A stretch of DNA of 55,238 bases from Candidatus Margulisiibacteriota bacterium (GTDB taxonomy: Bacteria > Margulisbacteria > Termititenacia > Termititenacales > Termititenacaceae). Shown here in pieces: positions 30,680-33,075 of the stretch (its first letter is position 1; the number at the start of each line of letters is the position of its first letter). The notes under the pieces were generated by a model, which saw only the letters and a list, made by a program, of their open reading frames with translations, did not search any database and was not told where the DNA came from. The stretch lies in assembly GCA_031267055.1 (NCBI GenBank), contig JAIRZV010000033.1:1-55238 (forward strand). The letters run 5' to 3'. A program made the translations under genes and the position numbers.

Positions 30680-31930
30680 ATGCTAGATCAAAAATTAATC
30701 AGAGAAAACCCCGCGATGGTCAAAGCGGCTTTGAGCAGGCGTAATTTTGATCTGGCTTTGCTGGATGATTTTCTCGCGGCTGACCAAAAATGGAAAACCG
30801 CGCAAACCGAGCTGGACAATCTGCGCGCCGGACTCAAAGCGGCGTCCAAGACCAAACCCACACCGGAAATCATCGCCACTAATAAAAAACTCTCGGAAGA
30901 AATCAAGCAAAAAGAAAAAGCCGCCGCCGTTTTAGAGGCGGAACAGCAAATGAAATTGTTATTCATTCCTAATTTACCGGACGAGACGGTGCCACAGGGA
31001 CGCTCAGCCACGGACAATCAAGAGATCCGCCGCTGGGGCGAGCCGGAAAAAAAAGATTTTGCGGTTTTGGCGCATGACGAGATCGGTGTGAAATTAGGCA
31101 TTTTAAATTTCGACGAGGCCGCGAAAATTTCCGGCGCGCGCTTCGTGGTGTATCACGACGCCGGCGCCCGTCTGGAAAGGGCGTTGATCAACTTTATGCT
31201 GGACACGCATACTCGATCCGGTTATCAGGAAGTCCTGCCGCCGGCGCTAGTGAACGCCAAAGCCATGACCGGCACAGGGCAGCTGCCAAAATTTCAGGAA
31301 GATTCATTTGCCTGCGACAAAGGCGATGACCTTTATTTGATCCCGACCGCCGAAGTGCCGGTGACCAATCTGCACCGCGAGGAGATTCTCGATGGCGCGC
31401 GCCTGCCGTTGCGCTATGCCGCTTACACGCCGTGTTTTCGCCGCGAAGCCGGCTCTTACGGCAAGGACACGCGCGGGATCATCCGCCAGCATCAATTTAA
31501 CAAAGTCGAGTTGGTAAAATTCACTTTGCCGGAAAACTCCATGGCTGAGTTGGAAAAACTGACCGCGGACGCTGAGCAGATTTTGCAAATGTTGAAATTG
31601 CCGTACCGCGTGGTTGCGCTCTCCGCTGGTGATCTGGGTTTCTCGTCGAGCAAGACTTACGATCTGGAAGTTTGGTTTCCTTCACAAAGTACTTACCGCG
31701 AAATTTCCTCTTGTTCCAATTACAAGGATTATCAAGCCCGCCGCGCGAACATCCGTTTTCGCCGCGAGCCGGGCGCCAAACCGGAATTTGTCCACACGCT
31801 CAACGGCTCCGGTCTGGCGGTTGGCCGCACCTTGGCCGCGATTTTGGAAAATTGTCAAAACGCCGACGGCTCGGTGACTGTGCCGGAGGTTTTGCTTCCT
31901 TATATGGGCGGCTTGGCTAGGATTGGGTAA
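30680..31930 (+). CDS. serS: seryl-tRNA synthetase
   Basis: N-terminal coiled-coil arm. Class II motifs [21 protein letters not shown] and [26 protein letters not shown]. Confidence 0.95.
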
Positions 31931-31940
31931 ATACTTATTT

Positions 31941-32963
31941 TTATTGTTCCGTGTTTTCTTGTGCCAACAAAGCCCTAACCTCGCTAATCAATTGTTCTTT
32001 ATCCGGTATATAGTAGGTATAGCGCGATGCAAAAATATTATTTTCCAGACCACCTAACGCATACTCTGCCATAACGTCGTGCTTGTCAGCGCATAAAACT
32101 ATTCCGATTGCTTGCTGGTCATCCTCCGCCTTAACTTCAGAGTTATAGTAATTTAGATACATATTCATTTGTCCAATATGTTCCGGCGTTAAGTGCCCTG
32201 TTTTTAGGTCGATCAGCACATAAGCTTTCAGCATTTTGTTATAGAAAACCATATCGACATAATAATGATTACTGCCTAGCGTTATTCTCTGTTGGCTACC
32301 CACGAACATAAAACCACGCCCAAGTTCTAACAAAAAATCTTCAATGTGCCGGATTAGTTTGTACTCTAAATCTTTTTCAAGCAGCGGTTTCTCTTCACGC
32401 ACTCCTAAAAACTCAAAAACATATGGGTCTTTGAGAATATCCTGCGGCTTGTCTAAGACGACACCTTGTTTCGACAGTGTTAAAATTGTCTGCTTATTCG
32501 CTTGGCCGTCTGATAGCAAAAGTCGTTCAAATAACGATGTTTCTATCTGCCGTTTTAATTCGCGGACTGACCAGCCAGAGTTTAGGCATTCTTGCTCATA
32601 AAATGACCGCTTGTCTTTATCGGAAATTATTAAAAGCTCACAAATGTGCGACCAAGACAATTTGCCAGACACTGTCTGGCAAATTGGGTAGGCCAGGTAA
32701 AAATTACGCATATTTTGTAAATTAGAGCGTGAAAAACCCGTTCCTAACTCTTTGGTTAGTTTTTTTGCTAGTTCTTTTAACAATTGTTTTCCGTATTGTG
32801 CTCTAACATCGCCATTTTGTTCATGGTCTACAATGAGCCGTCCTATTTTCCAATATGTTTTTACTAGGTGTTGATTTACTTCGCGCGCTACATTTGACCG
32901 GGTCTGCTCTATCAATAATTTTATCTGCTTAGTAATATTATCAATATCTAGGATTTCCGCCAT
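31941..32963 (-). CDS. DUF1016 (YhcG-like) PDDEXK-family nuclease-domain protein
   Basis: N-terminal LVKTYWKIGRLIV...QYGKQLLKELAKKL...GFSRSNLQNMRNFY is typical of DUF1016. C-terminal core YYVDMVFYN...YVLIDLKTG is a D...(D/E)xK nuclease core. Confidence 0.8.
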   Translation of the reverse strand: MAEILDIDNITKQIKLLIEQTRSNVAREVNQHLVKTYWKIGRLIVDHEQNGDVRAQYGKQLLKELAKKLTKELGTGFSRSNLQNMRNFYLAYPICQTVSGKLSWSHICELLIISDKDKRSFYEQECLNSGWSVRELKRQIETSLFERLLLSDGQANKQTILTLSKQGVVLDKPQDILKDPYVFEFLGVREEKPLLEKDLEYKLIRHIEDFLLELGRGFMFVGSQQRITLGSNHYYVDMVFYNKMLKAYVLIDLKTGHLTPEHIGQMNMYLNYYNSEVKAEDDQQAIGIVLCADKHDVMAEYALGGLENNIFASRYTYYIPDKEQLISEVRALLAQENTEQ

Positions 32964-33003
32964 TGTCGACCTCGGTGTTTATCTTAACATACTGTACACA
33001 AAA

Positions 33004-33075
33004 AACACCGACGGTTCGATAACTGTGCCGGAGGTTTTGCGACCGTATCTGGGCGGCTTGACTAAAATTGCGTAA
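33004..33075 (+). pseudogene. orphaned duplicate of the last 24 codons of serS (in frame, own TAA)
   Basis: 60 of 72 nt identical to 31859-31930 by hand alignment. Translates NTDGSITVPEVLRPYLGGLTKIA* versus [23 protein letters not shown]. Confidence 0.85.

Follow-up and report, generated by a model that had tools for sequence, protein, structure and literature searches.

A solitary nuclease gene at the 3' end of serS in a termite-gut Margulisbacterium, bracketed by one native and one imported copy of the serS tail

Restriction-modification genes and solitary restriction genes are known to enter genomes through "insertion with long target duplication", a class attributed to Nobusato et al. (2000) in the account of Furuta, Abe and Kobayashi (2010; PMC2853133). 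Its members are short, carry no mobility genes and have flanking repeats of more than 30 bp, which correspond to a single copy at the empty site and often lie across a start or a stop codon. By its criteria, the inserts are shorter than 20 kb; one screen required both an R and an M gene, and solitary mcrA was reported as well. The mechanism of the class is unexplained and double-strand breaks are suspected; a cycle of insertion, amplification through the repeats and release has been proposed, the release being without evidence (PMC2853133). We analyzed a window of 55,238 nucleotides, the contig JAIRZV010000033.1 of a Candidatus Margulisiibacteriota bacterium (assembly GCA_031267055.1), in which a gene for a YhcG/DUF1016 nuclease lies between two copies of the 3' end of serS, the gene of seryl-tRNA synthetase (SerRS). 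This locus is a clear new example of the known recombinase-free insertions of restriction-type genes and belongs to the class with long target duplication. Like that of the published members, its insert is short (1,145 bp), holds a single PD-(D/E)XK gene and lacks mobility genes; there is an 80-nt repeat, and relatives have empty sites (G002, G001 and L136). The repeats span the stop codon, the target gene is intact and the cargo is a solitary nuclease, as in the case of mcrA. Unlike them, it carries a cargo that is not treated in PMC2853133, its host is a Margulisbacterium of the termite gut, and its two repeats are only 83% alike, one of them native and the other imported. The twist of this locus is therefore that the repeat was at least partly carried in.

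The genes and the two repeat copies lie as follows, in positions of the window:

30680-31930, plus strand: serS, an intact open reading frame (ORF) of 416 codons (Pfam tRNA-synt_2b and Seryl_tRNA_N)
31857-31936, plus strand: repeat copy A, the imported serS tail, which comprises the last 24 codons with the stop and a further 6 nt and now ends the working gene
31941-32963, minus strand: YhcG/DUF1016 PD-(D/E)XK nuclease gene, 340 amino acids, convergent with serS (Pfam, PADLOC)
33002-33081, plus strand: repeat copy B, the displaced native serS tail, with a coding relic at 33004-33075
33082-34101, minus strand: collar/fibre-like gene, the native 3' neighbour of serS, outside the insert

The first-pass annotation of this DNA, made from the sequence alone, had placed the end of the functional serS at 31930 and a second copy of its last 72 nt at 33004-33075. 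Both statements hold: the ORF is intact to that position, the coding parts of the repeat (31859-31930 and 33004-33075) are identical at 60 of 72 nt across a gap of 1,073 nt, and their translations are exactly as given there. The convergent YhcG-like gene is also, as described, the only sizeable gene between the copies (DUF1016_N, YhcG_C). Beyond the coding part, the direct repeat extends over 80 nt (31857-31936 and 33002-33081) with 84% identity. A blastn comparison of the serS tail with the local 8 kb gave E = 2.5e-12, and no further copy of the tail was found elsewhere in the 1.54-Mb assembly. Copy B is untranslated, with no in-frame start codon upstream of it in the sequence or in the list of ORFs, and the collar gene follows it after 6 nt, as in the empty sites. 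The source is a Candidatus Termititenax metagenome-assembled genome (MAG) of 174 contigs, 74% complete, and the structure of the locus is known from this assembly alone. The longest identical run common to A and B measures 19 nt and is internal to the repeat; because no run exceeds this length, a k-mer misjoin is unlikely. A chimera of strains would be expected to yield either of the two paths and not a duplication, and the assembly is thus indirectly backed.

We compared the locus with eight related serS loci (G001, G002, G003, G005, G006, G007, L136 and L137). G001 is Candidatus Termititenax aidoneus, a congener, and the SerRS relatives carry the names Termititenax or Margulisbacteria. The empty site that had been predicted, with serS directly before the collar gene, is found in G002, G001 and the JGI contig L136, where 6 nt separate serS from a convergent collar-type gene, whose 3' end comes first. 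A short spacer separates serS from a collar-type gene in G005 and G006, while serS directly precedes pyrG in G003, G007 and L137. None of the eight loci has a nuclease at the serS site or a second serS tail. In the closest relative, G002, serS is 94% identical at the nucleotide level and the collar gene follows without insert. The acquisition thus took place after the split from G002, the closest relative sampled. On the opposite reading, an ancestral structure has disappeared from the relatives, or the assembly has fused two strains; it draws on the fact that the genome is a MAG of 174 contigs in which the locus is seen in the assembly only. However, loss by recombination between A and B should leave chimeric tails, and the G002 tail is B-like throughout; the eight empty loci branch off at several levels of the tree; identical runs between the copies do not exceed 19 bases; and isolate genomes also have structures of this kind (L058, L064 and L089). 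We consider this reading extremely improbable.

Which of the two tails is native was decided by comparing the 72-nt ends with those of the eight relatives. Over serS nt 1-1179, the window and G002 differ at 62 sites (5.3%), which corresponds to 3.8 expected differences per 72 nt. Copy B differs from the G002 tail at 4 of 72 sites, all synonymous, and hence at the background rate. It also has the same 6-nt spacer and collar-gene end downstream as G002, and the junction is again the same in L136. Copy A instead shows 13 differences in 72 nt where 3.8 are expected (binomial P = 9e-5), with seven amino-acid changes included. The pairwise identities over these 72 nt are 60 for A and B, 59 for A and G002, and 68 for B and G002, and the tails nearest to A are those of G005 (9 differences) and G001 (11). 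Every variant residue of A is present in other Termititenax SerRS, and B and G002 share derived residues. By these differences from G002 and from the tails of the relatives, B is the displaced native tail and A a foreign tail imported with the nuclease gene. The proposal of the first-pass annotation, namely an imported replacement 3' end, a displaced native end on one side and two different lineages of origin, is borne out, with the native end downstream. The donor of A was another lineage of the same genus, at about species-level distance.

The excess divergence sets in only a few bases from the left edge of the repeat and continues as far as the repeat does. Up to nt 1143 serS is 94% identical to G002; position 31822 holds the last background mismatch, and 31862 is the first A-specific site. 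The last 70 to 108 nt or so of the working serS are accordingly of foreign origin, as far as the sequence comparison can place the border. Since all four differences between B and G002 are synonymous, B seems to have been a neutral relic for only a short time, and the insertion is probably recent. Codon 392 of serS (31853-31855) reads TGT (Cys) where the other compared Termititenax SerRS have TAT (Tyr) in an ENYQ motif. This Tyr-to-Cys change, at 31854 and thus 3 nt to the left of the repeat edge, is private; it could have arisen as a mutation of this lineage, have come in with the donor tract or be a scar left by repair.

The same divergence pattern bears on a duplication of the recipient's target in place, with later conversion of A by a diverged serS allele. 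Such a history would agree with the published cases, where the repeats are nearly identical (PMC2853133, Tables 2 and 3), and with the serS tail being a recombination border in the genus, as seen in the SerRS P0123. Yet it needs two events with coinciding tract borders, the excess divergence of A beginning at the left edge of the repeat and running to its end, and we find it very improbable. P0123 is encoded on the JGI contig L136 (L136:1449-1538). Its serS body differs by 5.5% from the window and its tail by 11-12 of 72 nt from A, B and G002, and there is no duplicate. A recombinant tail without a duplicate identifies the serS tail as a recombination border of the variable interval between serS and pyrG, and in Termititenax it appears to be a frequent one. 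In this interval (window 31930-35869; L006, L007 and L137), the two genes are adjacent in three relatives and separated by collar/XRE cassettes in others, and the window has two collar/XRE cassettes and the nuclease.

The comparison of the filled site with the empty sites of G002, G001 and L136 delimits the inserted unit and its parts:

about 31862-33006: inserted unit of about 1,145 bp, composed of the foreign serS tail (with the stop and a few bases after it), the nuclease ORF, 10 nt between these two, and a promoter spacer of 38 nt
31857-31861, plus strand: AAAAC at the left junction, repeated at the right junction (33002-33006)
32989-32981, minus strand: putative extended -10 box TGTTAAGAT in the 38-nt spacer; ahead of the ATG there is also a GAGG ribosome-binding site

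The unit is inserted at about nt 1178 of serS, and its left edge can be placed only within 31823-31862. The AAAAC found at both junctions is a 5-nt microhomology or the crossover point. The insert has a GC content of 37-40%, compared to 52-55% in serS and pyrG. By reading of the sequence, TGTTAAGAT is likely the promoter box of the nuclease gene, and a similar TGTTAGAAT box precedes the nuclease homologue of T. aidoneus. A consensus promoter and terminator scan returned nothing above the shuffled expectation and did not list TGTTAAGAT, as it demands a -35 hexamer. An Rfam scan of 31700-33300 gave nothing meaningful. Nucleotide similarity to the five closest homologous loci ends at the borders of the ORF, so that no conserved cassette ends were found; the insert has no transposon-like termini.

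A related displacement of gene ends has been described for rhs, cdiA and the effector-immunity modules of type VI secretion systems, for which homology-facilitated illegitimate recombination was proposed (PMC5361080, where Jackson 2009, de Vries and Wackernagel 2002 and Prudhomme 2002 are cited). As in those systems, the module at serS would have come in with its own 3' end of a conserved gene, recombined within the conserved part and shifted the old end downstream as an orphan; a pair of joins, one homologous and one illegitimate, has been proposed there and may apply here. Unlike them, the target is a housekeeping aminoacyl-tRNA synthetase and not a polymorphic toxin, the imported end is an ordinary allele that confers no new function, and there is a single displaced layer, with no array. 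On balance, we favour a history in which the foreign tail and the AT-rich nuclease unit entered serS through host recombination, with the imported tail as homology arm. Since one repeat is native and the other foreign, the gene would have travelled with a copy of the target tail. In the donor lineage the nuclease gene would already have been directly behind serS, making a unit of tail and nuclease, and this unit would have entered the present lineage, for example, by natural transformation. The genome encodes intact ComEC (751-aa frame) and DprA (409-aa frame), which makes DNA uptake possible; both genes are common and thus weak evidence.

Integration could have followed either of two routes. 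In the first, a circle of tail and gene would undergo a single Campbell-type exchange within the 80-nt homology, and the junction would migrate to the edge of the homology and resolve there. After replication, this would leave a pure donor copy on the left and a pure native copy on the right. In the second, a linear piece would be joined by homologous exchange on the left and through the AAAAC microhomology on the right, as in homology-facilitated illegitimate recombination. The 5-nt AAAAC is present at the right junction, and a homologous anchor tract is invisible beyond 31823-31862. The imported tail now completes serS, and the native tail has been pushed 1,145 bp downstream.

Several observations count against this history. 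The MAG is only 74% complete and both junctions are known from the assembly. The postulated donor arrangement, an A-type tail directly followed by the nuclease, was present in no collection searched. An exact 17-mer over the A tail and stop, scanned in metagenome and genome contigs, hit 37 loci, none of them with SerRS or nuclease, which corresponds to chance, and no junction of A tail and nuclease was found among the closest nuclease homologues or the closest SerRS homologues. A RecA-type exchange is expected to occur in the internal block of 19 identical nt, yet neither copy shows any mixing from its first informative site on; resolution must then have taken place exactly at the edge, unless the right join was illegitimate. 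The circular and the linear routes fit this single locus alike. Finally, the two repeats of the published cases are more alike than either is to the empty site, a sign of duplication in place (PMC2853133), and this is not the case here.

The inserted gene encodes a protein with strong matches to both domains of its family, namely Pfam DUF1016_N (PF17761; 167.7 bits with a cut-off of 32.8, E 2e-49) and YhcG_C (PF06250; 193.4 bits with a cut-off of 32.5, E 2.7e-57). It also matches PADLOC PDC-S02, a candidate single-gene defence system, over residues 7-335 (E 1.4e-134). Residues E208/E213, D237 and K254 do not vary among 78 homologues, and the protein of the window reads D252-L-K254, so the predicted PD-(D/E)XK catalytic core looks intact. 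The AlphaFold2 (AF2) model is poor (pLDDT 59.6, pTM 0.37); its order of secondary structure (alpha, three beta, alpha, beta) fits PD-(D/E)XK, and a fold search with it returned weak, generic matches, mostly to PD-(D/E)XK nucleases. We found no solved structure related by sequence, and a literature search returned no biochemical characterisation of a YhcG/DUF1016 nuclease. DUF1016 genes have been located in type I restriction loci (PMC9881135), and published mentions also place them on mobile elements.

The nuclease gene is present in a single copy in the assembly and was acquired horizontally. Its closest homologue (82% identical) belongs to T. aidoneus, where it occupies another locus, between a helicase gene and hisS. 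The next (81%) comes from a spirochaete MAG of the termite gut and is followed by many homologues from Bacillota (Firmicutes), at 62-70%. Most likely the gene acts as a solitary, restriction-like defence gene, and its family, a candidate for defence, is very common. One homologue (75% identical; L097:23-3618) lies beside an Mrr-like restriction gene and an AbiA-like reverse transcriptase/HEPN gene, a defence-island context. Many of the closest homologues (P0003-P0008 and others) are on contigs of 1.1-1.6 kb, about the size of the cassette; these could reflect assembly breaks at flanking repeats or be plain short metagenome contigs.

To see how often such genes are bracketed by repeats, we scanned the homologous loci with full flanks for direct repeats (E < 1e-4) around the gene and used windows from the same loci as controls. 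Bracketing repeats were detected in 6 of 48 homologous loci and in 1 of 192 control windows (Fisher P = 3e-4). In a Ruminococcus MAG (L074:1-1270), the nuclease gene and uvrB each begin with the same 87-nt segment of promoter, ribosome-binding site and ATG. This is a duplication of a 5' end and thus the mirror image of the serS case. Other loci have a promoter repeat of 81 nt (L023, for which a clean empty site was not obtained), a repeat of 34 identical nt (L058, an Anaerotignum isolate) and one of 291 nt (L089, Anaerovibrio slackiae), the last with an empty site holding one copy in the relative G051. Neither copy at L089 stands out as native or foreign, both being about equally distant from the empty site of G051. 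At a further locus (L043:1490-4230), a homologous nuclease gene lies between two 3'-end fragments of a tRNA gene, directly after an integrase-like gene. This arrangement implies that an integrase-mediated route also exists for the YhcG/DUF1016 family.

Integrative elements, such as phages and islands with their att sites and the staphylococcal cassette chromosome (SCC) at rlmH/orfX, target the 3' ends of genes for tRNAs or proteins and bring along a substitute for the end that they displace. The serS locus resembles them in its direct repeats at a 3' end, in the preserved function of the gene and in the position of the native end at the far side. It differs from them in having no integrase or recombinase, a single gene and no long identical core. 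Between or beside the repeats, neither ORFs nor Pfam searches revealed an integrase or transposase, as the first-pass annotation had noted. The search that it had proposed for a cognate integrase found three tyrosine recombinases in the 74%-complete assembly, all on other contigs and none linked to a serS fragment; two of them are, at a guess, size-compatible with XerC/D.

This annotation had left the choice between a decayed islet and a cassette captured by homologous recombination. As an islet, the insert would descend from an element whose attP mimicked the serS tail, which integrated by site-specific recombination at a core near CAAAAC, and whose internal deletions spared the nuclease gene. 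Repeats of this kind classically stem from elements that target 3' ends and carry a new end with them, as is generally known and also discussed in PMC2853133. The homologue at L043, between tRNA 3'-end fragments and next to an integrase gene, would fit as well, and a crossover at the left edge would agree with the purity of both copies, A as donor and B as native sequence, from their first informative site on. At this edge, where the crossover must lie, the copies share AAAAC (5 nt), and their block of 19 identical nt is internal. However, no integrase or fragment of one occurs within the 1,145 bp, which gene, promoter and tail fill; the three tyrosine recombinases are on other contigs and no other copy of the serS tail is present in the assembly; and several other single-gene insertions of the YhcG/DUF1016 family have long repeats at unrelated targets. 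An islet is in our view quite unlikely. Since the insert is exactly one gene with promoter and tail, capture by recombination fits better, and the islet less well.

Within the nuclease gene we found one more element:

32659-32685: perfect 13+1+13 palindrome AATTTGCCAGACAnTGTCTGGCAAATT, codons 94-102 of the nuclease ORF

The palindrome occupies the same codons in nearly all of the 78 homologous genes examined. Its arms come in four covarying versions (GCCAGACA/TGTCTGGC, TCCAGACA/TGTCTGGA, AACAGACA/TGTCTGTT and GCCAGTCA/TGACTGGC), and double-sided changes fill 51 cells, compared to 11.5 +/- 2.9 after shuffling (0 of 500 shuffles reach 51). Pairing between the arms is 91%, against 17-39% for slid partners. 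The choice of synonymous codons is nearly frozen inside it, with K101 always AAA and S99 almost always TCT, while adjacent Ser, Leu and Arg codons are free. In some compensatory pairs, an amino-acid change goes along with a synonymous one. No one-sided G-T (G-U) intermediates were seen in the three covarying pairs, a hint of a site in double-stranded DNA and not of an RNA hairpin.

In some loci the palindrome recurs outside the gene. Further copies are found at a distance of 45-108 nt before the start (L020:8-28, L043:2950-2970, L024:1117-1137 and L051, the last about 46 nt before the start) or 20-45 nt past the stop (L074:1178-1198 and L091:4026-4046), and they share locus-specific variants with the internal palindrome, which suggests an operator-like or cis-acting site. 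In the genome studied here the palindrome has no other occurrence, and it matches no Rfam family. It may be an operator for the N-terminal domain or the site of nuclease action.

A mobile endonuclease ORF that moved together with a foreign atp6 C-terminus is said to have been described in Allomyces mitochondria by Paquin, Laforest and Lang in 1994. Like that case, the serS locus combines a free-standing endonuclease gene with a foreign 3' end of the target, a hybrid gene and a displaced native end. Unlike it, the locus is not organellar and the nuclease is of another family; homing was known or inferred there and is a conjecture here. The YhcG nuclease could drive its own spread by breaking DNA at or near the target, or at its own palindrome, with repair copying or ligating the cassette and the tail. 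Long flanking repeats are strongly enriched around the family, the predicted catalytic residues are intact, the published class is suspected to need double-strand breaks by restriction enzymes (PMC2853133), and the palindrome is under DNA-level selection within the gene, with additional copies close by at some loci. On the other side, no YhcG protein has a known activity or recognition site, the serS target is unlike the palindrome, which is single in the genome, and no co-conversion tract extends beyond the tail on the left or exists on the right. The enrichment of repeats is equally explained by selection for defence genes that arrive through host recombination. We therefore regard homing-like spread as unlikely, and continue to favour entry by host recombination with the imported tail as homology arm.

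A broader conjecture, which we offer as a doubtful one, is that YhcG/DUF1016 (PDC-S02) genes are widespread recombinase-less selfish cassettes that travel with the end of a target gene, or with a promoter and start. The palindrome could then be a cis site bound or cut by the encoded nuclease, serving self-control or triggering the recombination that moves the cassette.

The locus is an example of an essential gene that tolerates insertion in its coding end. One native and one foreign repeat are what is expected if a gene travels with one repeat that serves as homology arm. The locus hints that the YhcG/DUF1016 family is a favoured passenger, or a driver, of long-repeat insertions.

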